Of a stretch of DNA of 64,000 bases, positions 2,586 to 63,690 are shown piece after piece. The first letter of the stretch is position 1. Each line of letters starts with the position of its first letter. The translations under genes were made by a program, and so were the position numbers. This DNA is from Phoronis australis (Eukaryota; Animalia; Phoronida). Location: contig NMRA01000025.1 in assembly GCA_002633005.1 (NCBI GenBank), positions 323,450 through 387,449 on the forward strand. The letters run 5' to 3'. The notes beneath the pieces were generated by a model that worked only from the letters and a program-made list of their open reading frames with translations, did not search any database and had not been told where the DNA came from.

Positions 2586-3015
2586 AAATTGAAATGATAG
2601 CAGGAAATCTCAAACGGTTGACCCGGCAAACCGGCGATGCCAATCACGTGCAGCGTTTGCTAGACCCATTTCTGTTGCTTGTATGTTTCTTTCTTGCTAG
2701 TTTGTTGTATGTGAAATGAACATGCACGTATGCGGCTCTCGAGTCACCGTTTTTCAAACTGATAGTAAATAATAAATGATAACGCTAAAAGATATTCATT
2801 GTCATATACACTTCGTTGCTGTGATTAGGGCGATGGCAGTGTAACACATAAGTAACTATAAAACTACAGAAGTTGTATATGATGGCACCCATATACACTG
2901 CGTGCTGTCGGATTGAGTATATCACATGGGGACACGCATTCGGTATACCCTTTAAAATCGGTTTGCCGTGTGGCTTGTTATTTTGCTGTGATTGGATAGA
3001 GCTAATGCCCAGCAC

Positions 3016-4039
3016 TGGTAAATCATTCAACAGCCTGACATTAGAGGAGCACAAATTGGTAAATAATTCAACAGATAAAACATTTGAGGAGCACAAATTG
3101 GTAAATCATTCAACAGATAAAACATTTGAGGAGCACAGATTGGTAAATCATCCAACAGCCTGACATTTGAAGAGCACAAATTGGTAAATCACCCAACAGC
3201 CTGACATTTGAGGAGCGCAGATTGGTAAATCATCCAACAGCCTATTAGAGGACCACAAATTGGTAAATCACTCAACAGCCTGACATTTGAGGAGCACAAA
3301 TTGTTAAATCATCCAACAGTCTGATATTTGAGGAGCACAAATTGGTAAATCATCCAAGAGCCTGACATTTGAGGAGCACATATTGGTTAATCATCCTACA
3401 GCCTGACATTAGTGGAGCACAAATTGGTAAATCATCCAACAGCCTGACATTTGAGGAGCACAAATTGGTAAATCATCCAAGAGCCTGACATTTGAGGAGC
3501 ACAAATTGGTAAATCATCCAAGAGCCTGAAATTTGAGGAGCACAAATTGGTAAATCACTCAACAGCCTGACAATAGAGGGGCAAAAATTGGTAAATCACT
3601 CAACAGCCTGACATTAGAGGAGCACAAATTGTTAAATCACTCAACAGCCTGACATTTGAGGAGCAAAATTGGTAAGTCATCAAACAGCCTGACATTTGAG
3701 GAGCACAAATTGTTAAATCATCCAAGAGCCTGACATTTGAGGAGCACAAATTGGTCAATCACTCAACAGCCTGACATTAGAGGAGCAAACATTGGTAAAT
3801 CACTCAACAGCCTGACATTTGAGGAGCACAAATTGGTAAATCACCCAACAGGCTGACATTTGAGGATCACAAATTGGTAAATCACCCAACAGCCTGACAT
3901 TTGAGGAGCATAAATTGGTCAATCATCCAACAGCCAGACATTTGGGGAGCCCAAGTTGGTAAATTATCCAACAGCCTGACATTTGAAGAACACAAATTGG
4001 TAAATCATCCAATAGGCTGACATTTGAGGAGCACAAATT
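3016..4039. repeat. Minisatellite, ~41-bp unit, ~25 copies
   Basis: Head-to-tail TTGGTAAATCATCCAACAGCCTGACATTTGAGGAGCACAAA with point variants and no unique spacers. Confidence 0.95.
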
Positions 4040-4353
4040 CAGTACATAAGGAGTCGGAGAACGGAGATTCATTCTTGAACACCCCCGTTCTGCTTTCATA
4101 CTTACTCCGAAATTACAATCGGCCATTTTGTGCTCGCCTGGTAGTCTATTGTGTTATTCGCATTACTGAGTCAGTTATCGAAATCGCATTGTCACCTAAA
4201 GGTTAAAATTTCAAGTTTGAGCTCGAATTCTCAACTTTTTAGGTCGAGTTGAGCAATAAATAGTACACCTAACTGGTCTTTGTAACTACTTGAAGTCCAA
4301 TAAGGTTTGATAAAGTGGCCGCAAATGACAATTGGCCTTAGAATAGTCACAAC

Positions 4354-5468
4354 CACAGGCGCTTGGGTTTATCGCAAATGACGTCACTAATAATATAAAT
4401 GAAAACATAAAGGTTGGACACTCGAAATCTGTTTGCTCAGAATTTTCTACTCAAATGTGCATGGAACTCCACGAAACTAGCATCGAACAACTCTTAGAAT
4501 GCTTTCTTTCATTCGATCTCTTCAAATTGCCTTCAAGTGGTAATTTGGCGACAAAATGCCAAAAGAATGCCAAAATCACAAATTCAAGGACCTAATTCCG
4601 TGATGTCATGGCAGACGGTCTTCGCACATCCGGGTATTGACAGACGCTCCCGAGCTAAATCCGAAAGTTTAATTTCGCGCGGCTTTCGCCGTCAATCCAT
4701 CGACTACTTGATCATGAGAAGCAGAGAACACTTTATTGCCAAATAAATATAATTACTCACATATTTGTGTCAAATATAAATTATCCTGATACTGTATTGA
4801 TATGCGAAGTTTTTTTTGTACTGTGATTTCTTATCAAGGTTTTACTTTTGGCCAAAAGCATTGAGTTAACTCGTCTGCCACGCGCATTGTAATACTTGCG
4901 CGGACTGCGTTTCCTGGCCGAGTGTGTGTTGTGCTTCAATCAAAAAAGTGCGTGATGTCAAGATGAGAAACAAGATACGCCATTTTATGTAATAAAATTC
5001 TAAGTTAAGGGCTAAAATGATCCGTCAGTGGAATAAAGTTACAAATAATCATTAAAATACTAACTTTAACATTCTCAATTAGTTGAGTTTTCGATTAGAA
5101 TTATTGAATTTGAAATATAGGTTGCTTGCTCAAATTGGAAGTTTCACCTACGACAGGCGTACAAGTTGAAGCACAACTGAAATCCGCCATGTTTACTATT
5201 CCAGGTCCTTGAATTCAGAGTTTTGAGATTGTGTTGGAAATTCCATCGCCAATTCACCACTCACGAAGACAGTTAATGGGATCTAGGAAAGATAAGGCTT
5301 CGAAGGTTTATGCAACACCAGACTGAGAGAGGTGCACGCAGATTTTATTTGGATTTTGGACGGTTAAATTTGGGAGCCTCGGCTTGGCAAAGTTTAAGTG
5401 TCCAACCCTTATGTTTTCTTATATGTATTATTGAGTGACGTCATTTGCGATAAACCCAAGCGCCTGTG
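4354..5468. mobile_element. Non-autonomous TIR transposon with 8-bp TSD (P-element- or hAT-like), 1115 bp
   Basis: TIR CACAGGCGCTTGGGTTTATCGCAAATGACGTCACT... matches at both ends and continues imperfectly for ~70 bp. Exact duplication GTCACAAC at 4346-4353 and 5469-5476. Confidence 0.9.
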
Positions 5469-6420
5469 GTCACAACAAGCGAGTTGTTGCTGCATGTAGA
5501 CAGTAGAGGTTCTGATAGGTTTAAGCACATTCTGTCGTGTAAAGACTAAAGATATTGTCCACATGTATTTGAATGTTGTTAAATCAAAAGTTTTTGGGAA
5601 AGTATGTCCGAATTTCTTTTTAGTGTAGAGAAATATGCAGACACTAATTTGGATGCTTTCACTCTCATATTTGAATTACGTGAGTGTAGGTTTAAATCGC
5701 TCAATGTTTTTATCACTCTAACTAAAAGGCATATCTTTCCCGTCAAATATAGAACCAATTGCAATGCATTGGATTTTTAAAGATAGGTTAAACCATTATT
5801 GAAAACAGTTTAAATATATTTACACCAAGAATTGAAACGAAGAAAATTTTGATTTATGAATAGCAGATTTTTAATAAAATTATTTGTCATTCGGTAACAG
5901 ATGCCGTGTGCATGCCTTTGGTGCAGATGTCTGCCAGTCCATTATTAAACGCAACAAATATTTAGACGTTATATTATTACAGGTGAGATTTTTTTCTGTA
6001 TTACGTGTACATTTGTACACGTTTGCCTATTCAACAAATACCAAAACACGAAACATTGGACTTCTAGCTCCAATAACGATCTTGGTCTGTGATGTGTTAT
6101 GGAAACGTAACCGGTCTAGTTCAATTTTACCGCATTTGTTTCGAAATTTTGTCTTGCCGAAGCACACTTTGTACAGTGTGATGGTTAGATGCCATTTCGT
6201 ATACACCGAAGTAAAGCTTGGTTTGCATACCATACATAACATTACCTCAGGTGTTTGTGTACCCAAAATCGGTTGAGTTCGGTTTAAGAAAACACACGTG
6301 TATGGGGTCAGAGCTCGTCATTGGAGACCTTTTCATTGAGCGCTACCAAATGTAACAACACTGTAGGTTAATAAATCCATAAATAACAAACTTTACCATA
6401 TGGCTTCCACCTGACATATA

Positions 6421-6624
6421 TGACGTCACCCATTATGCCGTAAAAACCCAAAAAATTAAATTCACTGCGTATAACATTTAGAATTGAGCGTTGCGGCGTC
6501 ATGTGACAGGCCCTGTGCTGCTGCTTGACAAACTCTTGATAGATTGCACACAACACAAGCTTAATGTCTCCATTTACATAATTTAATGCCAGCATCGCGA
6601 TGGTGACAGAAAGGAGTGACGTCA
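6421..6624 (+). promoter_or_regulatory. Two palindromic CRE/ATF sites upstream of the membrane-protein ORF
   Basis: TGACGTCA at 6421-6428 and 6617-6624, within ~260 bp of the ATG at 6674. Confidence 0.4.
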
Positions 6625-6673
6625 CCTCTTATCTTTACGTAAAACACCAAGTTTAAAAAGATGACCGGAAAGA

Positions 6674-9600
6674 ATGTGCTTTCTGCTCTTTCTATTTATG
6701 ATACAGCTATATTCTGACATCACCTCCGGTCAACTTGATGTTAGCTTTGACAAGGCTGACGAAAACCCGTTTTGCTATTTGCTCTTGAGCGGTTACTCTG
6801 CAATGCACCCGCCGTCAGACGTTGCTAAACTCTTTCGCATTCATCTTAACGTATTTCCATTGAAATTGGACGAAGTGGGTACATTTCCATCCATGCAGGT
6901 GTTTTCGTTCGATTATGATCCATCAACGTCACGGTATTATTTCGCAGCGCGTAAGCACAACAGTTTCCGAGAATCTTCTAGCAGTGTTTTTGTTACCCAC
7001 AAATTGGGCGGTTCGTTGAAGAAACTGAAGCCGTTCTATTCCGTTGATCACGTGGACGTTAAGGCACTAATCTTAGACGAAGAAGGTCGCCTCTATATCA
7101 AAGACAACGATATCACCAGGATAGGCCTGGACAAGAACGGTCCAAAGGCTGGAGTCCGTGTAGCGGATATCGAGAACTCTTCCCTTATTCTTGATCTTTT
7201 AGCAAGCGAAGGCTTTGTTTTTATGTCTACCAGTAGTGAAGATAAAACTGGATATAGTATTCAGCAATATGTTTTTCAAGCCTTTATTAAGCGGCAGCTT
7301 ACCACTGAAGTTACGGGTCACTTTTGTGGTATGTCGCTCAACCCTGGCAAACGAAAATCTGATAAATTCGATTTGTATTATTGCTCTCAAAATGATTTTG
7401 GATGGACATCACTGATCAAAATATACCAGAAAAGGCATGACTGGAAAGACGATATAATTGAACACACACTTTTTCAAAAAGAATTTCCTACTTATTTGGG
7501 ACATAAAGCAGTCGATTTAGTGAGCACAGTTAACTTTTTATACATGGTTGTTTCAACTTCTGCCAAGATTCCGTCATCGGAGGTGTGGAAAATGTCTAAA
7601 ATTGCACCAGAAAAATACATCAGATTAGTTTTGCCGATTAAAACTGACCTGACTTCGAAAATACGATTTGTTACACCAAAGTCTAGCTGTAACAACGACG
7701 AGTTGCGTTGCAGCGACGTATTGCCGAACATAATTTTGGAACCATCGTGTTCTGGTTCAACTGGAAAATCGTGCAATTATTCGTGTAAAGCATCACGGAA
7801 GACCGGGGTGTTTGAAAAATTGCGATGCAACAAGGGAATCTGGGAAGGAAACGTTTCACATGGGTGCACACATCTTTGTGCGGAGAACATCACGGGTATT
7901 GCTCTCGACGTCACGTGCACGAGAGAGTCTGGAACAGAATGCAATTACACTTGTGACACTGGCAGACCAACTAAAGCTCTGACGTGCCGAGATGGGCATT
8001 GGAGCGATACTGACAACTTGTGTACAGTGCTGTGCGAAAAAGAAATTCCTCGGGTCGTGATAGAACCAAACTGCACCAGACTGCCGGGTGCGCTGTGTAA
8101 TTATTCGTGTGCTGAAGGATGTAGAAAGGTGGACCCAATGCTTGTCTGTGGTTTTGGATTCTGGAAGAATCCAATTCAAGACATGTGTGTAAAACTGTGT
8201 GGAGCAAACATACCCCATGGAAAGTGGGACACAGTATGTTCGAGACAGACCGGAGACTACTGCGCGGTGACGTGTAAAGAAGGGTGGACTCCTAGAATGG
8301 GTAAAGTGGGATGTCGCGATGGTTATTGGGAAAACCCTGTTCAGACTCTTTGCAGCGAAGATTTTTCCGACTCGGATTTACTGCAGTCTTTATGGTTTGG
8401 AATAGCGTTGCTGGGAATAGTTGTATTTGTCGTTATCCTCTCCGTGATCATGGTACTTTGGAGGAAGCAAAAGAATGTGGAACTGCAACTAATTGAGCTG
8501 GAAGAGAGAGAAGCATTAGAGAAATCGTTGCTCAAATCAGAACACGAGGAACTCATTTGTAACCAGGAATTTAACATTCTCTCACAAAACACCATCAAGA
8601 TAGAAGAAGACGCGATGAACCGTGACAAATGCACAAAAGTAATCGAACCAGCATGCCAATTTCAATCAAAAGATAAATCAAAGGAAACACAGAAGACCAC
8701 AATTTTAGCAAAGAGTTTGACTAAAGCTACTGGTGATGTAGACCAGGTGAAAGGGCGAGACGAAACTGGGATGAAGAAATATGACCAAGAAAATGCTGCA
8801 ATGGATAAATGTAAAAGGAATGATGATAAACCTATCATTGACACTGAATCGCGTCCAGAATACGAAGAGCATTGTTCGCGCCCAAAAGACGAAGATCATT
8901 GTATAGCCTCTGAGTATAACCGAATGTTGAAAAACATCTCAGGTGCCACAAAAACAAAACAAGTCATGCGAATCAAAAAGGCTTACACACAATACCAACA
9001 GTTTTGTGATCAAAATAAAGGCAAACTGCCAAATATCGATAACGAGCCTATTTTTGAAGCCATCAATACGATGCTGACTATGACGAAACACATGGACTTA
9101 GCGAGCCAAGCCGCGAATCATGTTCTCGAAGTACTAGTGATGATGACCGCAGATCTTTCTCATGGAGATAACCATGGAGACGATGTAGCAGCGCATGCGT
9201 CAGAAGCCAAAAATAAGGTCAACGGGTTGCAAAGCGTCGCTACAATACAGAAGGAGCTTCTTAGCATAGACAGAAAAATAATGAGCGAAATACGCCAATA
9301 TCCCCAGCCACACCATCGAGTGCACGAAGTCATGATCGCGTCCCTTCTGCTATTAGGGCACGAAGAAAGAGACACACGCAAGTGGAACCAGTGTCAGAAA
9401 CTGTGCATGCCGCTTCCTGAGAAAGATTACGAAGGACTCTACAGTGTACTTAAACATTTCAAATTGGCTTCAGTGCATCCGGAAATAGCTATGCGCGTAA
9501 AGGAAATCCTGGGTAGCTACACGCAGGCACAGGTGTCAAGAGCTTGTTTCGCGGTGGGCGTGTTTTACAAGTGGGCGATGGCAGTCTGTGACGAGTGTTT

Positions 9601-9748
9601 AGCGAGCTGTGTAGATCTGCCGAAACCAGCTGTGGGTGAAAGGCAGGCCGAGATCCTTGGACTTGGGAAGGATACTGTTTCACATTCTAGACACCAAAGT
9701 GTTGCTAACATTAAACAAGCTAAACGCTATTCGAAGGTAGAAACATGA
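6674..9748 (+). CDS. Intronless type I transmembrane protein: signal peptide, beta-propeller-like region, 4 sushi/CCP-like repeats, TM, cytoplasmic dynein-MTBD-like domain
   Basis: Uninterrupted 1024-codon ORF. Hydrophobic N-terminus MCFLLFLFMIQLYSDITSG. Blade-like motifs (FDYDPSTSRYYFA, ILDEEGRLYIKD). Four repeats C...C...G..C.YSC...L.C..G.W...C (aa 346-560). TM WFGIALLGIVVFVVILSVIMVLW followed by RKQK. C-terminal EIRQYPQP..VHEVMIASLLLLG...W...VSRACFAVGVFYKW. Confidence 0.93.
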   Translation: MCFLLFLFMIQLYSDITSGQLDVSFDKADENPFCYLLLSGYSAMHPPSDVAKLFRIHLNVFPLKLDEVGTFPSMQVFSFDYDPSTSRYYFAARKHNSFRESSSSVFVTHKLGGSLKKLKPFYSVDHVDVKALILDEEGRLYIKDNDITRIGLDKNGPKAGVRVADIENSSLILDLLASEGFVFMSTSSEDKTGYSIQQYVFQAFIKRQLTTEVTGHFCGMSLNPGKRKSDKFDLYYCSQNDFGWTSLIKIYQKRHDWKDDIIEHTLFQKEFPTYLGHKAVDLVSTVNFLYMVVSTSAKIPSSEVWKMSKIAPEKYIRLVLPIKTDLTSKIRFVTPKSSCNNDELRCSDVLPNIILEPSCSGSTGKSCNYSCKASRKTGVFEKLRCNKGIWEGNVSHGCTHLCAENITGIALDVTCTRESGTECNYTCDTGRPTKALTCRDGHWSDTDNLCTVLCEKEIPRVVIEPNCTRLPGALCNYSCAEGCRKVDPMLVCGFGFWKNPIQDMCVKLCGANIPHGKWDTVCSRQTGDYCAVTCKEGWTPRMGKVGCRDGYWENPVQTLCSEDFSDSDLLQSLWFGIALLGIVVFVVILSVIMVLWRKQKNVELQLIELEEREALEKSLLKSEHEELICNQEFNILSQNTIKIEEDAMNRDKCTKVIEPACQFQSKDKSKETQKTTILAKSLTKATGDVDQVKGRDETGMKKYDQENAAMDKCKRNDDKPIIDTESRPEYEEHCSRPKDEDHCIASEYNRMLKNISGATKTKQVMRIKKAYTQYQQFCDQNKGKLPNIDNEPIFEAINTMLTMTKHMDLASQAANHVLEVLVMMTADLSHGDNHGDDVAAHASEAKNKVNGLQSVATIQKELLSIDRKIMSEIRQYPQPHHRVHEVMIASLLLLGHEERDTRKWNQCQKLCMPLPEKDYEGLYSVLKHFKLASVHPEIAMRVKEILGSYTQAQVSRACFAVGVFYKWAMAVCDECLASCVDLPKPAVGERQAEILGLGKDTVSHSRHQSVANIKQAKRYSKVET

Positions 9749-10689
9749 TTTAGACATAAGGTTGAGAGTGGACAGCAACAGAACGATGTTTTAATCTTGC
9801 ACTGTTACTGATCGATCATTAGTTGGATAAAACAGCGGGAACAGTAGTGTTGTATATTAAATATGCTTGTTGTGTGTTAGAATGAATTATCAACGTACGA
9901 GCCAACCGTATGTGTTGAATGAATTTTCACGAGACAACTCTTATCACAATACTGCATCCTGTGTAAATATCTCCATCGCTTAACTTATTTTCCGCGTGGT
10001 GCAAATATTGGAAAACATGTGGAAAAGACATTCCTTTTTCGTAATTAAGATAGCGTTTCTTACATTCTCGGAGGTGCCTCATCAGCGGGTTCATAGATAA
10101 CGACGTAATGATTCCTAAATGCGATAGTACCACTTGTTGGAGAAACGTGCAAATAACACTCAGGTATTAGATGTTCAGCTGCTGCAATTTGCTAACGACG
10201 AGCTGTTGTGTGCCCAATAACATAGATCTTGAGGAACCTTGATGTGAATCCTTAGCCTACACATACCAGTAGGTGGAAGTAAATTCCATAAAATCTAATT
10301 TTCTTAGTAGGACAAAGGCTCGGCACTGAACATCCTGCTCCGAGTTACTTCTTCCACGCTGCGTAGAGTTTGATTTTTCTGACGTTCTGTCGATATCAAA
10401 ATGAATTTAACGTTTTCAATACGAAAAATGGAATTTATTACAATTTAGTAGATCATTGAAAGCCACTGATATATTATACTCGCTAGAAATTTACTAAGAT
10501 ATGCAAACAAGATTAGGCTCTACGTTTTTCAAAAGTTTGTGGGTTTCAAAACTTAGAACACATCCGCTAATGGTCATAACATTGTCCAACATGGCTTCGA
10601 CTTTCACACAAATTTCCTGCGTAGTCTACAAAATATGAAGCGTGTTTTCCGGGATGACTGCAGTGCAGATAGTCGCAATTAAATTTCCA

Positions 10690-12307: not shown

Positions 12308-14105
12308 CGAAGGCCCATTAAAGCCATGAAAAGTTAAATTTTGAAATTATTATTGCGGATTGCCAATCTGTTAATACGGATTGACAATCTGTTATTAAGG
12401 ATTGCCAATCTGTTAATACAGATTGCCAATTTTATACTACGGGTTTGCTAATCTGTTGTTATGCATTGACAATCTGTTATTATGGATTGTAAAATGTGTT
12501 TTTGGATTGACAACCCAATTAACATACATTCGCTTGTGTGTTTTATTTTCTCGGATACATTTTCATTTGGGCATTACATTGTAGCTATGATTAGACTTTG
12601 GTGTCGATGTCTACAAATCACAAGGTGTTTAAAAGCAGGCGAACTCTTCAACAGCAACTTCGAAATATGAAGTTGTTACGGTGCAAGAAGCAAACAAACA
12701 TAGATGTTGTTTGTTTTCTTCGAGAACAGACACCAGGACACATTTCTGGTAATCGATGAATGCATTTGAAGGGTATGCAAAATTGGCTTAATTATCGTCA
12801 AGGCAACCGTCCGCCATCTTTGACGATTAGTAGATACCAATGGAGTACGATCGGAATGCGTTACAAGCCAAGATATTTTCACAAGAATGCGCTTCTATCA
12901 ATTGTGAGGCATACACATGTACCTGTATCAAGTACACAACCTATACGCGACATTTTTGTGATACTCTGTTGATGAGCATCTAACAATCAAGGCCGGATCC
13001 GGAGGAGGGAGAAGTGTGTCGTGGCCCCCAAAGCTCCGAAAAGTGCAAAAAAAATAAAACCGAAAAAAATACGATCGACCCATATTGGTTCCTAGGTTCG
13101 ACCGGCCTACGTAAGGAACTAAACACCAATGCTTTTTTAACATACTAAGTACGCGTAACATTCCAAAAAATCAACGACCACTAACTACAAACTACAAACT
13201 ACAAATACACTACATATGCAAACGAATCACGAGATATTACTAACCAAACAAAATAATGAAGACTTTTCGAGCAAGCTATAGCACATTCCGTTAGAATGAA
13301 AAATGACGGCAAGTTCCTGAACTGATGAGCCGGAAATGTGGGTACGGAAATAACCGATGACAACCGGTAATCATACGCTCAGAGAGAAGGGTCAAATACT
13401 GTTCAAAAATCGCTTTTGGCAAGAAAGGCGAAAAGAATATAAAGAAAGGGTGTCGAAAATAACATTTTATGTAGTTAGTATTTTCAGATACTGGAACCAC
13501 ATGGGCAGTTTGAGAGAAGGACTTTAATGAAACAAAGTGCATGCAAGGCACTTTGTCAAACCACCACGTTTTAACAGTTCTTCGCAGAAGGAATACGTGT
13601 AACGGATTAATCTAAACATAGATGTTATCAGTTAAACACAAAGAGAGGGAGCTTGTGCCTTTTTGCAATGAGCAACCTACTACAAAGAAAGAGAAAAGAC
13701 CAAAATGAGTGCTTAGAATGTTTAACTATTTTAATATCGAACTTAAAACTTCTAGCATGCACTTAAAGTGTTTATAAACAATGATAATTCAATACCGTGC
13801 ACGATATGCTTTAAATCAACAAAGTTAATTATTTTGTGAAACTTCGGATGAAATCAAAAACATCTCATAGGTCGATTGACGGCACTTTCAATACTTTGCT
13901 CAGCGTATTAGCCACTAGTCGTAGCCGATCTGTAATAACAGATTGGCAATCCGTATTAACAGATTGACAATCCTTAACAACATATTGTCAATCCATAATT
14001 TGCAATTGAAAATTGACAACCCGTAATAACAGATTGGCAATCTGTATTAACAGAATGGCAATCGGTATTAACAGATTGATTTTTCCTGGCATCTATGGAC
14101 CTTCG
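12308..14105. mobile_element. Non-autonomous TIR element (Tc1/mariner-like) with inverted arrays of 21-bp subterminal repeats
   Basis: Left end TA|CGAAGGCCCATTAAAGCCATGAAAA versus right end TTTTCCTGGCATCTATGGACCTTCG. GATTGCCAATCTGTTAATACG repeats at ~12358-12490 appear reverse-complemented at ~13930-14080. Confidence 0.7.
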
Positions 14106-14345: not shown

Positions 14346-16047
14346 AGGAGAATGCCACCCGATTTAATTAGTCTTTTTTACCGTCTTAGTCGGTCTATAT
14401 CCACATCGCCTCTTATATGATACGCTCGACCTCACCTTGCCGAGAGGTGTCGCGTTAACCTGTGAGGAAGGTGAGAACGCAGCGACGTCAGTGGTTCGTC
14501 TGCAGAGTGAATGCCGCTATCATGCGTTGCATCGCTCCCGCTTGTCCGAACTATGAAGCTTAGAAGAAGACGGGTATATCGTTTTTTCGACTTCCTCGAG
14601 AGCCTGAAATGCTTAGGAAGTGGCTCGTGGTAGTGAAAAATGAAAGGTATGCTGTTAATACCAAGTATGAGGCCGTGAAAGATATCCGTGTCTGTGGCCG
14701 GCATTCCGTCGACAGTGATTTCTTTGACGAATTCCGGCTTACCAAAGAACTATTCATACAATCCGTTGCCTGTGCATGTTCACGGGTCCTCCTCTCTACT
14801 ATTGTGGAGTATAGCTTGATCAGTGTATTCCGGTTGGAACTGATATCCTGTGAAACCTAAGGATCCGACCCCTGAAGTCTTCGTCGGATGAGCTCTTGAC
14901 TATGTCGGGATTGGCGCCGGGCGAGTTGCCATGCAAACTTTTATTATTCTGCGTTCTGTTTCAAAATGAATTATTCTCATCCTAACCAATGCTTATATGA
15001 AACTGAAACAAAAGTCCATATCATTAGATACAATTTGTAATGCCTTGGAGTGCTCGTGAGTGCAAATGTTTTAAGAAGCCAGCAATGAATAAACCACTGC
15101 GTTACCGGCTTTTGATGCCGGCAACAAAGGTAATTGATCGGGCACAGAGGCCGTGTGAGTGCATGCCACATGTAACTCAGAGTTGTCTGACAGAAAGCTG
15201 TTGTGAAACAATTATTAGATTTTATATGCTACGGTCACATGTTAGGGAAATCTTTATTTATAAATACAAATACATTATTCAAATCATTGTTACTGTACAA
15301 CCTTTGCCCCGACGGTCTGTGGAAGTGGAACTAGACTTCGCGGCTCCCTACAAGTAAGTAGATTATCAGTGGCTAATTCACATAAATAATTACGTGCACA
15401 TTATTTCTTCGGCTCACTATAGTCTTTTCGTGACTGGAGATTTAGTTTCCAACTCTGAAGCTGGTACTGTTCATGCCAGTCCCGGCGGACGCGACGGGCC
15501 CCATCGGTTTCCAAGCCACTGGCCGGGCCTCCGAGTCACGACAGTCCGGCCGTGACGCCGGGCCTAGAGATCGGGTTCCGAGCCACTGACCGGAATAACA
15601 AGCGTTTTGTGTGTTAAGAACTCAGAACAATACAGATCTAGGTTCTCCTGTCGAACTGTATTTCACGGAAGAATACTTCGAATTTATCTCCGAACAGACC
15701 CCAAACTCCTGCTACGGACATTGATGGCCTGCCGAACTTTGTATGCTACGGTGTGTCCAAATACCAGTGAATCCGTAACAGCGAAATAAAACAACACGTT
15801 TTTATGAGAACTCGGTGTATTTTTAAGGGTTTTGATGGTGTTAAACGATGAATTCAATCGATAAGCTGACACCACTAACCTGTGTTATGAACTGCTGAAC
15901 AGACTGCGTGTGAAACCAATTACGTCATAGGATAATTTCAACACCTCCGTGTGCCGTCAGGTAACGCATTCGAACGTGCCGTTATCGAGTAGAACTACTC
16001 GATCTAAACTGATACAAAATACGTTGTTTTTTGGGTGGCATTCTCCT
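14346..16047 (+). mobile_element. Kolobok-like non-autonomous DNA transposon with degenerate THAP domain
   Basis: 15-bp TIR AGGAGAATGCCACCC / GGGTGGCATTCTCCT with TTAA on both sides. Internal broken frame ...CPN...GISFFRLPREPEMLRKW...IRVCGRH matches the THAP zinc-finger pattern. Confidence 0.85.
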
Positions 16048-28000: not shown

Positions 28001-28652
28001 CGTTTGTGCAAATGAGGCATAATATTATTTATGACAATGTTAAATTTTTTCACGTGAAGATACGTGATTTATAATTCACCTTATATGGCTAGTGTAGTTG
28101 AAGCGCTGAAGTTGGCGCTATAAAGATTCGTCCACTAATTTCTAATTTAAAAGCAAATAAGCAAAGCAAAAATGAATGTGTGCTAAAATGAACGTTTTAG
28201 TTTTTTGGTTCGGTGGTGGGCCCACTTAGCGAGTTATCCACGATGTAAATTTTAAATACGTGTCCCATTCTCGCCCCCTGCTGACAGTTGAGCCTATGCC
28301 AACTGTGACATCGCAACGTTTTGCAATAACATTCTGATCCGGCATTGGAGATAACTCCTACAAGTTCTAATAATAGACAAAAGATGGCTCACAAAAGGGG
28401 GGCGCGAGGATGGTTTACATTCAACAAACCTTGATTTGTTGTAGGAAAGCTAATAATGGATAGTAAGAAAAAACAAGGTAAGAAAAAACAAGACAAAAGG
28501 ATACAAAGTCATTGAGATGAAACCTATTGCTCTCACTAGAACGGAGTAGGTGTGAATATCTAAAAAGTTGACTTTGTCATACGAATAATCTAAATATGAC
28601 ATTAATACGAAAAGATATTTTTTGTGTTTGACACTCATCCCATCAAAAGACG

Positions 28653-28896
28653 CCATTTTGGAAAGGAGTTCCAATGATGGTAGAATCACTATAGTTACTC
28701 ACCATTTTGGAAAGGAGTTCCAATGATGGTAGAATCACTATAGTTACTCACCATTTTGGAAGGGAGTTCCAATGATGGTAGAATCACTATAGTTACTCAC
28801 CATTTTGGAAAGGAGTTCCAATGATGGTAGAATCACTATAGTTACTCACCATTTTGGAAGGGAGTTCCAATGATGGTAGAATCACTATAGTTACTC
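28653..28896. repeat. Minisatellite, ~49 bp x5 (intronic)
   Basis: CCATTTTGGAAAGGAGTTCCAATGATGGTAGAATCACTATAGTTACTCA near-identical tandem copies. Confidence 0.95.
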
Positions 28897-29714
28897 TTTT
28901 CTTTTTTTCCATATCAATGGTTCCATATTGGAGGGGCAGCTGATTACGAAGTTGTCGGTTCGGTTAACATTTTGTTGTTTTTGTTTCGATCAAACCATAC
29001 CATAAACTTTTGTTCGTTTTGCTTTTTGTGGAATTTTACTTTTTTTCATGCGGATGGTCACCACTCGAAAAGCAGGATCCGAAGATGGAATCAATTGTCT
29101 CTTATTAGCTTTTTGTATTAAGTGGTCCCTTTCGCAGGGGCCTCGTTTGCAAAGGGCCGATACAACTGCACCTTCCCTAAATAATAACAGTCCAGAAGCT
29201 AAGACACGAAAATAGACCAAGAAAATAAGAAAATCGTCAAAGCTAAAGCGACACACTGCTGCACAACTCAGTTCAGGGAATGTTTCAATTTTTATATTCC
29301 CGGATGGATTGTTTTTAAGTTTCCGACAAACTTTTGATATAATTGAATGGTTCAGTGCTTGAACATGTATATTTCACAAACTGAATATTCTGATCAATTT
29401 AACATGAAATAAAACTTTACTGGTAAATATTAATCACTTTCACAGATTGTCTTGTCGCTTAAGCGACTTGGGTACCGTACTTGGCAGTTTATGACGTCAT
29501 GTAACAACAAGCAGGAGCACACGGCGACATGGTATTGCCACGATGATGAAAATAAATCCGTGTATATGGGATAAATAGGTGATCCCACATACATAGGAAT
29601 GCTACTGCCATATCCTATGTCGAATCCATTTCTCTGGGATTGTCCCAACTCGACCCCGGACCAATATTTACACCAGGTGTTTCGTCCACATTTTAATTCT
29701 AAGGTTACTTTCAG

Positions 29715-30472
29715 GATTGCCAGTGGGGCGTAAGCGCCGCACAAGCAGTACTACCCGGACCCCCAAGCCGTATGGTTATGTCAGATTAACAAGATCGAGT
29801 CCATGGTCGCGAAACCTAGATTACAGTGACCAGTATGACAGCGTTATACCTATGCACAGGGTCAAAAAGCGATCCGTAGACGCTGCGCTAAAGCACACGG
29901 CAGGTAAACGTTCCCTCACGAATTTGACTCCAACACGTCCCCACGACGAAGACGATAAAATGGACGATGAAATGAGGGAATTCTTGGAAACTCTTGGCGA
30001 AGCGTTGGTGAAGATGTCGGCCGAGGAAAAACTGACCGACGGCGAGGCTCTTAAAAGAGCATTCGTGAGGATTGGCAGGGACCCAAACAATAAGCGAGCG
30101 TTTGTGCGCATCGGTCGCAACCCAGAGGAGCGAAAAAAAGCATTCATGAGATTGGCCAGAGCTTTTGTGCGGATAGGAAGAGGGGATTGGGGAGAACCTC
30201 CGTCAAAGAAAGCTTTTGTGAGGATCGGCAAAAACAATGACGATGAAGAAATAAATCCTGCACCGGAAAAGAAAGGGTGGCTAAGATTCGGTAAGAGGGA
30301 TTTAGAGGAAGCCCCGGACAAGAAAGGGTTTATTCGTTTCGGCAGAGGAGATAGTGAACTCTCCATGGATAAAAAGGCGTTCATGAGATTTGGTAAACGG
30401 GACGTGGAATCCACCAAAAAGATGAACGCATCCGCAAAAGACAAAACAAACAAAACGAGCACCAAAATGTAA
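29715..30472 (+). CDS. Neuropeptide precursor, peptide-encoding exon (FVRIamide/FMRFamide-related peptides)
   Basis: Acceptor TTACTTTCAG|GA then LPVGRKRR... Encodes 4x AFVRI-G, AFMRLA, GWLRF-G, GFIRF-G and AFMRF-G, flanked by K/R cleavage sites with acidic spacers. Spliced product ~297 aa. AATAAA at 30916-30921. Confidence 0.95.
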
Positions 30473-34190: not shown

Positions 34191-35013
34191 NNNNNNNNNN
34201 NNNNNNNNNNNNNNNNNNNNNNNNNNNNNNNNNNNNNNNNNNNNNNNNNNNNNNNNNNNNNNNNNNNNNNNNNNNNNNNNNNNNNNNNNNNNNNNNNNNN
34301 NNNNNNNNNNNNNNNNNNNNNNNNNNNNNNNNNNNNNNNNNNNNNNNNNNNNNNNNNNNNNNNNNNNNNNNNNNNNNNNNNNNNNNNNNNNNNNNNNNNN
34401 NNNNNNNNNNNNNNNNNNNNNNNNNNNNNNNNNNNNNNNNNNNNNNNNNNNNNNNNNNNNNNNNNNNNNNNNNNNNNNNNNNNNNNNNNNNNNNNNNNNN
34501 NNNNNNNNNNNNNNNNNNNNNNNNNNNNNNNNNNNNNNNNNNNNNNNNNNNNNNNNNNNNNNNNNNNNNNNNNNNNNNNNNNNNNNNNNNNNNNNNNNNN
34601 NNNNNNNNNNNNNNNNNNNNNNNNNNNNNNNNNNNNNNNNNNNNNNNNNNNNNNNNNNNNNNNNNNNNNNNNNNNNNNNNNNNNNNNNNNNNNNNNNNNN
34701 NNNNNNNNNNNNNNNNNNNNNNNNNNNNNNNNNNNNNNNNNNNNNNNNNNNNNNNNNNNNNNNNNNNNNNNNNNNNNNNNNNNNNNNNNNNNNNNNNNNN
34801 NNNNNNNNNNNNNNNNNNNNNNNNNNNNNNNNNNNNNNNNNNNNNNNNNNNNNNNNNNNNNNNNNNNNNNNNNNNNNNNNNNNNNNNNNNNNNNNNNNNN
34901 NNNNNNNNNNNNNNNNNNNNNNNNNNNNNNNNNNNNNNNNNNNNNNNNNNNNNNNNNNNNNNNNNNNNNNNNNNNNNNNNNNNNNNNNNNNNNNNNNNNN
35001 NNNNNNNNNNNNN
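34191..35013. other. Assembly gap
   Basis: Run of N. Confidence 1.
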
Positions 35014-35425
35014 CTCGTTGTACCTAACAATAATTTGTTTCCGAGTACTTCGGGCATGGTTTAAAATTGAAAGGGGTCATTACAAGTTGAATTTATGAGA
35101 ATTGTATTGTTGCATTGCGAACTAAAAACTAGTCGATTGACGGGTAGTGCGAGACAAGGCAACGAGTAAGGACAGCTTTGATTTGCTTACGAGTAGTGAC
35201 TCATGATTGGCCAGACATCTGTAATAATATGTTTTGTCTTTCCTTTTCAACGGAATATATTTGAACTTTGGTAATTTGGGGCTACAAAATGTAGAACAAC
35301 CTTCCTGGTGCTTCTCTCCAGTAGACACGCGGAGAGTGAAGCGCTAACTGGTCCATAAGCGATGACCTAGTTTTCGCAGAGAACCTGGCGGATGACCTAG
35401 TTTACGAATTGCTGGTAATGACGCT

Positions 35426-36843
35426 TAATGGTGTCAACTTATCGCTTGAATTCATCGTTTTGCACAAATAAATCTTCAAAATTCGATGTAAACTCCTTAC
35501 AAACGTGTTGTTTTATTTCACTGTTACGGATTTATATAAATTTGAACGGTGAAATACAGACGGGGGAACATAGCTGTGTGTTGTACTTTTAGACTTGCGA
35601 TTTTTTAGTTCTAAACACACAAAACGCTCGTTACTTCCAGCCAGTGGCTCGGAACCCAATCAGGCCCGCCGCGGCCGCCGGGACTGGACATCACGAACAT
35701 AAACCAGCTTAAGTTGGAAACTAAACCACCAGTCACGACAAGACTACATGTATAATACTGAGCCCAGAGAAATAATGTACACGTAATTATTTATGTGAAT
35801 TATCCACGGAACTGAAAACCTACTTATTAATTTGTCGGGCGGGCCGCGAAGTCAGGTTCCCCTTCCACAGAACCGTCAGGGCAAATGAAGGTTGTACAGT
35901 AACAACGATTCGAATAATGTATTTGTATACCTACATAAAGATTCCCCTATGTGATCATAACATATAGAATCGAATTATAGTTTCACAACAGCTTTCATTC
36001 AGCAAACACTGAATTAGCATGCGCTCACACGACCTCGGTGCCCGGTCAATTACCTTTATTGCATCTAAAGCCGGTGAACGCAGTGGTTTATTCATTAATT
36101 GCTTGCTTCTCAAAACATTTGCACTCACAAATATTCCAAAGGCATTACAAATTGCATCTAATGAGACAGACTTTGTTTCAGTTTTATATAACCATTGGTT
36201 AGGGTGAAAATAATTCGTTTTGAAACAGAACGCAGAATAATAAACATCTACATGGCAACTCGCCCGACGCCAATCCCGACTTAGTCGAGATCTCAGGCGA
36301 CGAAGACTTCACGGATACTGGGATCGTTAGGTTTCACAGGCTATCAGTTCAAACCGGAATACACTGATCAAGAAATACTAGAGAGGCGCCGTGAACATGC
36401 ACAGGCAACGGAACGTATGGATAGTTCTTTGGTAAGCCGGAATTCGTCAGAGAAATAACTGTCGACAGAATGCCGGCCACAGACACGGGTGATGTTTCAC
36501 GGTCTCATATGCAGTGTACTTTGCTATAATTACAACGTACTTTTCATTCTTCACTACCGCGAGCCACTTTCTAAGAATTTCGGGCTCTCTAGGAAGTCGA
36601 AAAAACGACATGCCCGCTCAGTTTCTTCGCAGCTTCATAATTCGGACAAGCGAGAACGATGCACCACAATACAGCGGCATTCCCTCTGCACATGAACCAC
36701 AGACGTCGCTGCGTATTTTTTCACCATCCTCACAGGTTAACGCGACACCTCTCGGCAAAGTGAGGTCGACTGCATAGGAGGCGACGTGGATATAGACCGA
36801 TTAAGACGGTAAAAAGACTAATTACATCGGGTGGCATTCTCCT
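35426..36843 (-). mobile_element. Second, inverted and one-end-truncated copy of the Kolobok-like THAP element
   Basis: Reverse-complement homology to ~14346-15876. TIR GGGTGGCATTCTCCT at 36829-36843 followed by TTGA; the opposite TIR is not seen. Confidence 0.85.
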
Positions 36844-55044: not shown

Positions 55045-57950
55045 CCGTATTCGCCGTAATAACCGCCCATGCCCCTTTAAGTGCCCCCCCCCCCCACTTT
55101 GCTGAAATAAGCGCCCAGTCCATGAATGTATACATGCGAACAATGACGTACCTACAGTCCTAAAACTCGGCTACAGTAACGTCTTCAATTTATCCAAAAA
55201 ATTTTGCACGGGTCTTCTAGACCACCAGCGGCACTGCTACTTTTGTATTTAGCCGTGACTTTACACTTCAAAGTAAGGCAGTGCTTCAAAAAGAACGCAA
55301 CAGCGTTGCTATACTCTCGCAACGACCGTGTCCCACTATGGTCTGATCTTTCAGTAGACACATCGACTGTCTCATGAATAACAAGAGCAACGCAGAGCGT
55401 TGAAATGCGCCCACAATTGCACCGCATACGGTATCCTTCTAGGGTTGTTTATTGGTACCACAAAGTGGCCAGTAGAGGGCATATATGTAGTATGTTGTAC
55501 TTAGCAAAATGGAAAGGCATGATGGTCATTGTCTCCTCAATAGGCTAGGGGCAAAATGTGAGTAATCTTCATAATACAAGCACATCCTATACACCAGTTG
55601 CTTAAAGCACCACAGAAACATAAAATAAAAACAAATTTACCAACATACGAGATTAGCACAGCATTAGAATGCCAGAAACAAATTTCTACTTGGAACTTTT
55701 CCTTCATAGTCACGAAGTAACACAAAGTATACACCTGAAGACCTATGAAAATACAGAGGTCAATGTAAAATACTATAAATTGCCACTAGAGGCAAATACT
55801 AAAATTGCCACTAGAGGCATACCGGTAGTCAGAATCATCCTAAAGTCGTCATCGTCCGTTGTCAACATCACATCAATACACTTGCTAAATTTAGTAAAGA
55901 TCCTGCAAACGGTTTGGGAGATACAACCATGGGCGCAAAAAAAAAAAAACTGCCACTAGGAGGTGCCACAGTAGTCCAAATCGTCTGAAAATCATTGTCA
56001 GCTGTCTTCCTTATAGTAAGCACATACACGGCAATTTTCACAATCATCCTTTGAGCGGTTTGATTGATAGAGGGGTGGACGCAAAAATACAGACTCGAAA
56101 ACAGTAAAAATGGCCACTAGGTGGCGCAAACTATGTCGAATCTATCTGAAAACGGGAGGATAGCGTCATCTCACTATTAGGTGCCTACATACCAAATTTC
56201 ATGAAAATCCGTTCAGGACTTTTGAAGATACAAAGGTAAGCGTAAAAAACTAAAATTGCCACTAGGGGGCACACCAGTAGTAGGATCCGTCCAAAAGTCG
56301 TCATCTTCCGTTGTTAACATCATATAAATATACTTACACAATTTCGTAAAGATCCTGCGAAAGGTTTAGGAGATATAGCCATAGGCGCAAAAAAAACAAA
56401 ACAGCCACTAGGAGGCGCCACAGTAGTCGAAATCGTCGGAAAATCATCGTCAACCGTCCTCTACATAGTAAGCACATACATGCCAATTTTCACAATCATC
56501 CTTTGAGCGGTTTGGTTGATAGAGGGGTGGACGCACAAAAACAGACTAGAAAACACTAAAAATGGCCACTAGGTGGCGCAAACTATGTCGAATCCATCTG
56601 AAAACGGCAGGATAGCGTCATCTCACTAATAGGTGCCTACATACCAAATTTCATGAAAATCCGTTCAGGACTTTTGAAGATACAAAGGTAAGCGTAAAAA
56701 ACTAAAATTGCCACTAGGGGGCACACCGGTAGTCGGATCCGTCCGAAAGTTCGCACATGCCGTCCCATTCATGAATGGAACATATGTGCCAAATTTCATG
56801 AACGTATGTCAAAGGGTTTTGGAGATAGAGCAGCGGACGCCGGACGCCAGACGCCGGACGCCGCCCGGACGGACGGACGGACGGACGGAGATGACGGCAT
56901 AATGCGTCCACATATAAATATGTGGGCGCATAAAAATAACTGGGTGTTAAACGCACGTGGCCAGGAAGCGCGCGCTACATACATGAACCTGTCATCAAAG
57001 ACATTAGTCGGGAACTATCCATTCATGAAACGGGTAGCATAGCATCGATAAGAAATGAATATTGGCACTAATTTCCGACAATTTCTAATACTATAAAACA
57101 TGTTTGCGTTCTTTTGAGATGGATTGTTTGATTAACCATAAAGGTGTTTTTAAGCCGAGTATACGATGAAATGACAACTGACAGTGAATGCTTACACACC
57201 CTTACACCGAAAAATAACTGTCAGATAGTTACGTACGCATTAAGCTACACGGCGACTAATATGGGCCTTACCGAGACAAATGTCGAAAGTTTTTAGCACG
57301 AGACCGGCAAGTGCTGAATGAAACACGCTCTGGTTTACGCCTACTGCTTGTGCAAATTTCTTTAGACATCTAGCTAGTTAGATTGCATAGCTCTGGCCAA
57401 AAGATGGTCTCTGCCTTGGCAAATGAACTCTGGTGACGAACTTCAAAACAAACGTCACGTGACAACAACATGTGTGTTCGTCCAGACATTTTTCTCGCCG
57501 TGTTGCCGATCATACATGTAGATGGCACGACGTTGCACAGATTTGTACTTAAACCTGCCGTTAATCCAGACTCCACGGGAACTTATAAAACTTAATGAGG
57601 AGTTCAGGTAATTTGCTTGAGTCGAAACCATTTTTATTTAAGCATTAAAGTCGCCATATCGAAGACGGCGATTTTGAGGCAGTCAGTCGGCGAGTTTTCG
57701 CCCTGGGATTTCAGCACAATGTTCTGTAAAATGATCGTAATTTAGCAGCAAAGTTTGATAGCAATGCACCACAGTTTTGCTGAGTCTTTCATAGCTTACA
57801 TATACGTCACAGAGCGTAAATTTGATGAATCTTAGCTTCCGATGTCGCCCGTTTCGGAGACCGGGTTTCAACCGCCTTCGGTTAAAATAAGCGCCCCCCC
57901 CTGAACCGAACTTTTCTAAGTGCCATGGGCGGTTATTACGGCGAATACGG
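55045..57950. mobile_element. Non-autonomous pogo/Tc1-mariner-like element with TA TSD, carrying a nested insertion
   Basis: Perfect 27-bp TIR CCGTATTCGCCGTAATAACCGCCCATG / CATGGGCGGTTATTACGGCGAATACGG, with TA on both sides. Confidence 0.9.
55380..56936 (-). mobile_element. Helentron-associated (HINE/DINE-1-like) non-autonomous element with internal tandem array
   Basis: On the minus strand: TTTTTATGCGCCCACA start, (GTCC)n microsatellite, internal tandem repeats, subterminal inverted repeat ATGCGCCCACA/TGTGGGCGCAT, terminal hairpin CAACGC-TCT-GCGTTG and CTTGTT end. Confidence 0.8.
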
Positions 57951-58187: not shown

Positions 58188-58679
58188 CTATACAAGAAGG
58201 CGGAAACGGGTACAATTCAGGACAACGGAAACCTTAACCGTAACTGTCAATTCCGTCAGCAATTTTTTTCTAGATTATTCCAACTGAGACTGACAGGATA
58301 CTACCGGACATTACTCATCATACCGGCTATAATCCCAATTAATTCTATAATCTTCGTCGGACACAATGGGGCATTATACATGCACAGCAAGTTGACCCAA
58401 TTCCAGCCTGCACATTTTCAGTAAGAGGCATTTTATCAACAGCTTGACTTCCTAAAATGGCTATACGGCGACTTGGCAACAGTATTTCTACAATCAGCCT
58501 CTAAAGATGGCCAGAGAAATTATCAACACAAATATCATGTGAACATAAGTAGGCTTGAGACTGAGCGTATATATGTAAAAAATAGTAATTACAGAAGTAC
58601 CAGACATGCACTGATCACCTGGAGCCATGTTTGTGCATTGTTAATCTATTATTATAAGCAGGCGAAGGAGCTAGAGACC

Positions 58680-58870
58680 GGACTCAAGGGTCTAGCAGTG
58701 TGGCCCAGTGGGACTCAAGGGTCTAGCAGTGTGGCCCAGTAGGACTCAAGGGTCTAGCAGTGTGGCCCAGTGGGACTCAAGGGTCTAGCAGTGTGGCCCA
58801 GTGGGACTCAAGGGTCTAGCAGTGTGGCCCAGTGGGACTCAAGGGTCTAGCAGTGTGGCCCAGTGGGACT
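58680..58870. repeat. 31-bp tandem repeat x6
   Basis: GGACTCAAGGGTCTAGCAGTGTGGCCCAGTG repeated. Confidence 0.95.
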
Positions 58871-58925
58871 CGAAACCACGACCTCCAGCAGAGAAGGCGG
58901 GGATATATCATTAGGCCACACTGCC
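58855..58925 (-). mobile_element. tRNA-derived SINE head (degenerate)
   Basis: Minus strand GGCAGTGTGGCCTAATG (A-box-like)...GGAGGTCGTGGTTTCGAGTCCCACTG (B-box/T-arm-like). No intact cloverleaf. Confidence 0.6.
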
Positions 58926-63040: not shown

Positions 63041-63690
63041 TTTTTATGCACCCACCCCCATGTGGACACATTATGCTGTCATCCCCATTCGGCCGTTCGT
63101 CTGTCCAGCGTCTTCTGCTTTACCTCCAAAACACTTTGACGTATGTTCATAAAATTTTGCACATGTATTACTTTCCTGGATGGGACGGCATGAGCGAATT
63201 TTCGGACGGATCCAACAACCAGTGTGCCCACTAGTGGCAATTTTAGTTTTTTACATTTAACTATGAAACTTTGAAGGTCCTCGACATATTTTCATAAAAT
63301 TGGCATATTGGCATCTATAAACGAGATGATGCTATCCTCCCATTTTCAGACGATTCAACATAGTTTGCGCCACCTAGTGGTCATTTTTGTTGTTTACGAG
63401 TTTGTTTTTTGGCGTCCACACCTCAATCAACCAAACCATTTAAGGGATGATTTTAAAAATTGGCAAGAGTATTTATATGAAGCTAACAACAGACGACGTC
63501 GACTTTCAGGCAGATCCAACAAACGCTGTGCCCCCTAGAGGCAATTTATTTTTTTTCTGTTTTCCTTTCTTTTTCTGAAGTTCTTAGACAGAGTTTTATG
63601 AAATTTGGTAAATAGCTTTCTATTAAGGAAGCGATGGGACGTTCCCGTTTTTGGATGGATTAGACATTTTTGTGCTATCTACTGGCCAAT
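63041..63690 (+). mobile_element. Older, partial copy of the HINE-like element, opposite orientation to 55380-56936
   Basis: TTTTTATGCACCCAC...CATTATGCTGTCATC start, and CCACTAGTGGCAATTTTAGTTTTT / GCGCCACCTAGTGGTCATTTTT subunits homologous to the reverse complement of ~56250-56936. Confidence 0.75.

Follow-up and report, generated by a model that had tools for sequence, protein, structure and literature searches.

The usual link between a cell-surface receptor and microtubules is an adaptor or a whole dynein complex. Some membrane proteins, NOMPC and CLIMP-63 among them, hold microtubules directly, by ankyrin repeats or short basic tails. In dynein heavy chains, contact is made by the microtubule-binding domain (MTBD), a six-helix fold that corresponds to the middle of Pfam family PF12777 (structures 3ERR, 5AYH, 6RZB and 6KIO; flap-less type) and comes with an AAA ring, a linker and a long stalk. 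A non-motor globular domain is described on the Toxoplasma intraconoidal microtubule ICMT1, where it recurs every 8 nm and is placed between protofilaments; the accessible part of that report states no dynein likeness for it (PMC12819142).

Here we analyse a 64-kb window, the whole stretch of 64,000 nucleotides of Phoronis australis DNA, which contains a gene for a predicted membrane protein whose tail holds a motor-less homologue of the dynein MTBD. The direct-tether idea is shared with NOMPC and CLIMP-63, neither of which uses a dynein-derived domain. The domain is a known one; for the membrane-anchored architecture we found no published description. The sequence-only reading that drew attention to the locus knew of no characterised protein of this kind. 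In agreement with it, the full-text literature, mostly non-subscription, yielded no account of membrane proteins or KY/hillarin proteins that carry a motor-less dynein MTBD. The accessible part of a paper on a ciliary transglutaminase does not describe an MTBD-like fusion. Papers on an 'MTBD-like' region of TTLL11 were ruled out, as their accessible parts concern a different motif.

Gene structure, transcription and selection

The ORF listing of the window gives a single long open reading frame of 1024 codons on the forward strand. The gene and the parts of its predicted product are as follows.

6500..9850, + strand: transcribed region, ends approximate, one exon according to stranded RNA reads
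6674..9748, + strand: open reading frame, predicted type I membrane protein of 1024 aa; 18 variants, 11 of them silent
6674..6730, + strand: likely signal peptide, aa 1-19, with a short hydrophobic core; identified by eye, under the 19-residue hydropathy cut
6731..7687, + strand: N-terminal outer domain, aa 20-338; beta-propeller as a lead only
7709..8353, + strand: four tandem six-cysteine repeats of 52-57 aa each, aa 346-560; probably divergent sushi/CCP modules
8402..8458, + strand: single transmembrane (TM) helix, peak window aa 577-595, then a basic stop; from hydropathy
8471..8893, + strand: charged cytoplasmic linker, aa 600-740, probably disordered from its composition
8894..9157, + strand: predicted three-helix region before the stalk stub, aa 741-828; from model helices
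9176..9262, + strand: CC1-like stalk stub helix, aa 835-863; model helix 95-123, aligns from dynein residue 3263
9263..9547, + strand: MTBD-like core, helices H1-H6, aa 864-958; from profile, model, structure alignment and predicted complex
9548..9607, + strand: CC2-like helix of about 20 residues, aa 959-978; model helix 219-238, aligns to dynein residue 3409
9608..9745, + strand: C-terminal tail, aa 979-1024; lower model confidence over the part folded

In runs X5 and X6, stranded RNA reads are spread evenly over about 6500-9850, at a depth of about 20-68, and show no splice joints, indels or loose ends across this region. The gene is thus transcribed and unspliced in two of the three raw RNA runs. 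The third, X7, has no reads at the locus, so expression differs between samples. Of the 18 single-base variants in the reading frame, which has 684 silent and 2388 replacement sites, 11 are silent (pN/pS about 0.18, p 0.0004), and the variants include no stop and no indel. Replacements account for three of the four variants in the charged linker and for both of those in the C-terminal tail; the MTBD-like domain holds only two variants, too few to show selection there. The RNA cover and the variant pattern establish that this is a functional gene whose protein is under purifying selection. Being intron-free, the gene would fit an origin by retrocopying or exon capture. No paralogue was found elsewhere in the 64-kb window.

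At 6051-6650, immediately before the gene, a few reads map to the opposite strand at a depth of about 1, perhaps from a two-way promoter. A high-copy repeat transcribed on both strands lies at 4500-5470, about 1.2 kb upstream of the gene.

Topology and outer part of the protein

Only one 19-residue segment of the protein rises above 1.6 on the Kyte-Doolittle scale. It peaks at aa 577-595 with a value of 3.35, and the basic residues WRKQK come next. Seven of the eight N-glycosylation sequons, together with regularly spaced cysteines, stand before this helix. Given this distribution, the lone TM helix and the WRKQK stop, the C-terminal domain is predicted to be cytoplasmic. A type I topology is predicted overall: the TM helix, basic stop and sequons agree, and a likely signal peptide was picked out by eye. 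Beyond the membrane, aa 600-760 contain 28 lysines and arginines and 35 aspartates and glutamates.

The same reading had proposed a sushi/propeller ectodomain, and the two halves of that proposal fared differently. Against the first six-cysteine repeat, the others show 33-36% identity, and C, G and W residues are invariant. Repeat 4 aligns over the full length of Pfam Sushi (PF00084) at E 0.004 and 17.9 bits, under the cut-off of 20.7, and repeats 2 and 3 have no match to this family. A profile of the repeats matches complement factor H modules at E 0.05-1. These are probably divergent sushi/CCP modules, a weakly supported assignment, and the propeller is no more than a lead. For the N-terminal outer domain (aa 20-338) there is no match in Pfam or the PDB, and its nearest proteins in the Atlas, of the LDL-receptor propeller type, score 0.78, short of the 0.9 mark. 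A single-sequence model of the ectodomain reaches a pLDDT of only 33.6, and a model of such low confidence gave no Foldseek match. A word-indexed search with aa 20-600, within its length limits, returned no homologue at E<=0.001.

A motor-less homologue of the dynein MTBD

The interval first singled out as dynein-like, 9245-9590, encodes aa 858-973 with the residues as originally quoted, C-terminal to the single TM helix, as ORF translation and hydropathy confirm. The homologous unit spans about aa 835-978 (window 9176-9607), taking in a short stub of each stalk helix. Pfam does not reach it: against PF12777 (MT, gathering cut-off 24 bits), neither the whole protein nor the domain alone has a match. 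Matches to the Pfam families RGS and Flu_M1_C fall below cut-off and were dismissed. When the lone sequence was compared with the PDB, the best six matches were all dynein MTBD constructs (E 0.027-0.27).

The likeness becomes clear with a profile built from the query and 51 short relatives, which reaches the yeast dynein MTBD at E 3e-14. The best 60 of its 72 matches are all whole or fragmentary dynein heavy chains, one of which is otherwise labelled and 4583 aa long. An AlphaFold2 model of aa 741-1000 (pLDDT 87.6) predicts a six-helix bundle that is entered and left by antiparallel CC1 and CC2 helices. Dyneins take the top Foldseek ranks, and the model superposes on 3ERR and 5AYH with Z 17.0 at 2.8-2.9 A over 144 residues, CC1 and CC2 stubs included. 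In the Atlas, the domain adjoins mollusc clusters at 0.89-0.91, of whose members 14-54% carry PF12777. The tail domain is a motor-less homologue of the dynein MTBD, and the original suspicion of such a likeness is borne out by profile and structure alike.

The sequence-only reading had also noted the lack of an AAA ring and a long stalk. Pfam finds no AAA family in the 1024 aa, the stalk is reduced to short stubs, and the transcript ends unspliced near 9850. Compared with dynein heavy chains, the protein shares the six-helix fold at 22% identity and lacks the AAA ring, linker and long stalk; it also differs in being a membrane protein. Within the fold, it has a three-residue insertion after H3 and has lost H3 arginines.

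Other solved chains resemble the model. Toxoplasma chain 9YA2_L, which from size and numbering is probably ICMAP2, aligns over 125 residues at 3.2 A with 7% identity and Z 9.4, a value under the caution level for helical folds. Axonemal or radial-spoke chains (9FQR_Xl, 9E5C_2e, 7JTK_C and the radial-spoke chain 7JRJ_I) match the fold at ranges atypical of dynein heavy chains. It is possible, from these structural matches, that 9YA2_L and the unnamed axonemal chains are solved motor-less MTBD-like examples.

The predicted tubulin-binding face

Six residues of the yeast dynein MTBD that form salt bridges with tubulin are named in the accessible part of Nishida 2020 (PMC7042235). By alignment, the phoronid domain keeps four of them: K3117 corresponds to R867, E3122 to E872 (9287-9289), R3124 to R874 (9293-9295) and R3201 to R956 (9539-9541). 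The two basic H3 contacts, R3152 and R3159, are lost and replaced by N905 and M912. K909 lies inside the predicted interface and might replace the H3 basic residues, as in Dictyostelium. The positions of E872 and R956 are those of the dynein partners in the 'flipped ion pair' described in the accessible part of Uchimura 2015 (PMC4298687).

We counted residues over 125 family rows, those of 160 (query excluded) that cover more than 80% of the profile. The glutamate of E872 recurs in 123 of them, and position 874 is K or R in 99. Conservation of these two positions in motor-less proteins is hard to explain without tubulin contact. K or R at the R956 position is found in 19 of the 125 rows (73 if the neighbouring position is included). 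The core residues of the fold are intact in the query. The net charge of H3-H4 is +1 in the query against a family median of +4, with 19% of rows equally low. A glycine that is near-invariant in the family and three common basic residues are missing from the query in this region.

A complex with alpha- and beta-tubulin, predicted with stand-in tubulins from metagenome contigs of organisms other than the host, scored 0.61, compared with 0.01 for the best of three controls; as solved dynein MTBD-tubulin complexes exist, this docking may show likeness only. Among eukaryotic pairs, 71 of 105 solved ones and 2 of 126 unrelated ones reach the mark for such scores. The runs had at least 93% of their contacts in common, with a partner pLDDT of at least 78. 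Predicted contacts join H1, H3 and H6 to alpha 406-416 and beta 157-161 and 414-421, including R956 to alpha E414; alpha R402 is absent from the named contacts. A search with the tubulin motif gave no match in viral contigs.

From the retained contacts and the modelled pose, we consider it likely that the domain binds tubulin. The loss of two H3 arginines suggests that binding per monomer would be weak, and clustering in the membrane would then be needed to hold a microtubule.

Relatives of the domain form a mobile module

At E<=0.001, 194 relatives came up in a full scan, and the counts given here cover 150 of them. Among the matches listed, the closest relatives of the domain are motor-less modules, mostly KY/hillarin-like, with up to 40% identity. 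Ig-like_KY (PF23265) occurs in at least 44 of the 150, often together with Transglut_core (PF01841); the KY/hillarin-like examples include proteins of Owenia, Helobdella, Patella, Gigantopelta, Pinctada and Mya. The phoronid protein differs from this family in being membrane-anchored, with neither the transglutaminase-like core nor the KY Ig domain. Other listed relatives have VWA, EF-hand or LRR domains or tandem copies of the module, and many are fragments. The Pfam matches listed for the 150 include no dynein motor families. PF12777 itself is matched by 13 of the 150 at E<=0.001, six of these at 24 bits or more. Named hosts of the module are a sponge, annelids, molluscs, a rotifer, a hemichordate, amphioxus and a tunicate. 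No relatives were found in the metagenome scan, and word-indexed searches with aa 740-990 and with the domain alone gave no homologue at E<=0.001 within their length limits.

At least nine of the 150 listed relatives are membrane proteins with the full module after a hydrophobic segment. These remain from twelve with such a segment, after removal of P0081, P0145 and P0150 (a weak segment in a KY protein and two short fragments).

XP_078700756.1 and XP_035689228.1: amphioxus CLCA-like membrane proteins ending in the module
CAH1240778.1 and XP_066272931.1: amphioxus multi-pass membrane proteins, one CD20-like, ending in the module
XP_077867321.1: Saccoglossus EGF-repeat protein ending in the module
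CAF0857834.1: membrane protein of the rotifer Adineta ending in the module
P0092, P0089 and P0101: unnamed membrane proteins ending in the module

These candidate fusions, most of them database gene models, share with the phoronid protein the order of hydrophobic segment or segments, charged linker and C-terminal module. In contrast, their outer parts have no similarity to its own. Homologue searches and the metagenome scan found no full-length orthologue of the phoronid protein.

A quick tree, in which 55 of 122 forks are open, places the query among spiralian, largely KY-type domains and apart from eight of the nine other membrane fusions (fork support 82-87), on a long branch of 0.98 against a median of 0.38. 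This placement makes separate fusions likely, although it does not prove them, and suggests that the module was joined independently to different membrane proteins. The likely source of the query's module is a spiralian KY/hillarin-type gene, not dynein itself. Upstream of the domain, aa 601-845 have no detectable homology to those upstream of the module in relatives, and against a profile of the relatives' upstream helical repeats, aa 741-828 rank 94 among 301 sequences, no better than shuffles.

Two amphioxus CLCA paralogues, P0049 and P0083, have the module after a TM helix in several assemblies. Tandem modules occur as five copies after a Hemingway/CFAP97 domain in P0107 (937 aa), as three in a Pinctada KY-like protein (P0003) and as two in a Batillaria protein (P0115).

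Possible function

On balance, we lean slightly towards reading the protein as a passive tether between an outside ligand and microtubules, working through a motor-less MTBD in the groove of alpha/beta-tubulin. The outer part would bind a ligand or a partner cell, and the flexible linker of about 140 residues would give the tail its reach from membrane to microtubule. If the domain docks as dynein does, it would occupy the motor site without an ATP cycle, and its hold would depend on avidity. Because there is no AAA ring to run such a cycle, the register of the stalk stub is expected to be fixed or only loosely held. The sequence-only reading had further suggested that the tethered microtubules could be ciliary, sperm or neurite ones, or that adhesion and mechanosensing could be coupled to them; these suggestions are speculative.

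Alternatively, the fold may have been repurposed so that it binds no tubulin and docks another cytoplasmic partner (septin or cortical, for example), in which case the protein would be a signalling or adhesion receptor. The lost H3 basic and family-typical residues and the long branch point in this direction. Hillarin acts through septins according to the accessible part of PMC3081291, where the leech hillarin studied may lack the module, and the MTBD-like folds of 9FQR_Xl, 9E5C_2e and 7JRJ_I may not touch tubulin by this domain. Counter to this, all four H1 and H6 contacts noted above are kept, among them R956, which most relatives lack; E872 is near-invariant, and the predicted pose reproduces that of dynein. 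We regard repurposing as unlikely. A further reading makes the protein a regulated clutch or mechanosensor, in which ligand, clustering or tension would switch affinity through the upstream helices acting on the CC1/CC2 stub, replacing the ATPase. About 140 charged, variable residues between membrane and helices would carry a conformational signal poorly, and CC2 stops after some 20 residues; such regulation seems improbable to us, even though both stalk stubs are kept and align with dynein over 144 residues, and helical repeats lie directly upstream of the module in relatives. It would have a precedent in dynein, whose affinity is set by CC1 sliding and H1 movement, as described in the accessible parts of PMC7042235 and PMC4298687.

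The protein might also be a young chimera or a decaying retrogene in which the domain is a functionless passenger. Such an origin could account for an intron-free gene with a divergent domain, and for the failure to find orthologues, whether of the outer part or of the protein in full. It sits badly with 1024 open codons free of stop or indel variants, a pN/pS of about 0.18, sample-specific expression and an intact fold core, and we consider it very improbable.

Returning to the tether, a wider proposal can be put forward tentatively. An undescribed mobile module of invertebrates, derived from the dynein tip, may have been grafted repeatedly onto the tails of unrelated membrane proteins (sushi-like, CLCA, CD20-like and EGF-repeat) and onto KY/hillarin scaffolds. 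Receptors bearing it would hold microtubules at the motor site and compete there with dynein and kinesin, their grip perhaps tuned through the stalk stub.

If the tether reading is true, dynein's own binding domain on a receptor would join an outside ligand to the microtubule lattice within one molecule. Natural motor-free MTBDs would also offer a way to ask what sets affinity without an ATPase moving the stalk. Since the module ends at least 44 KY/hillarin-like and at least nine membrane proteins, a single binding assay would supply a function for a large invertebrate family that lacks annotation. Should binding fail, the protein would still show clearly how part of a motor can be reused as a signalling domain.

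Other features of the window

The last coding part of a neuropeptide precursor lies at 29852-30472 on the forward strand, with AFVRIG, GWLRFG, GFIRFG and AFMRFG units between basic sites. The units are of the amidated type, with a weak match to Pfam FARP (E 0.15), and the precursor is presumably of the FVRIamide/RFamide type. Like the nearest named relatives of the MTBD-like domain, which come from annelids and molluscs, it indicates a spiralian host. Open reading frames across 34191-35013 are artefacts, as this stretch is an assembly gap, a run of N.

Minisatellite arrays occupy 3013-4129 (41-base unit), 58649-58896 (31-base unit) and 28604-28897 (49-base unit). Dispersed repeats form inverted pairs that are 80-94% alike, at 14426-15878 with 35425-36769 and at 56032-56845 with 63103-63465. 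Two arrays of 21-base units, at 12336-12510 and 13911-14099, face each other like transposon ends.
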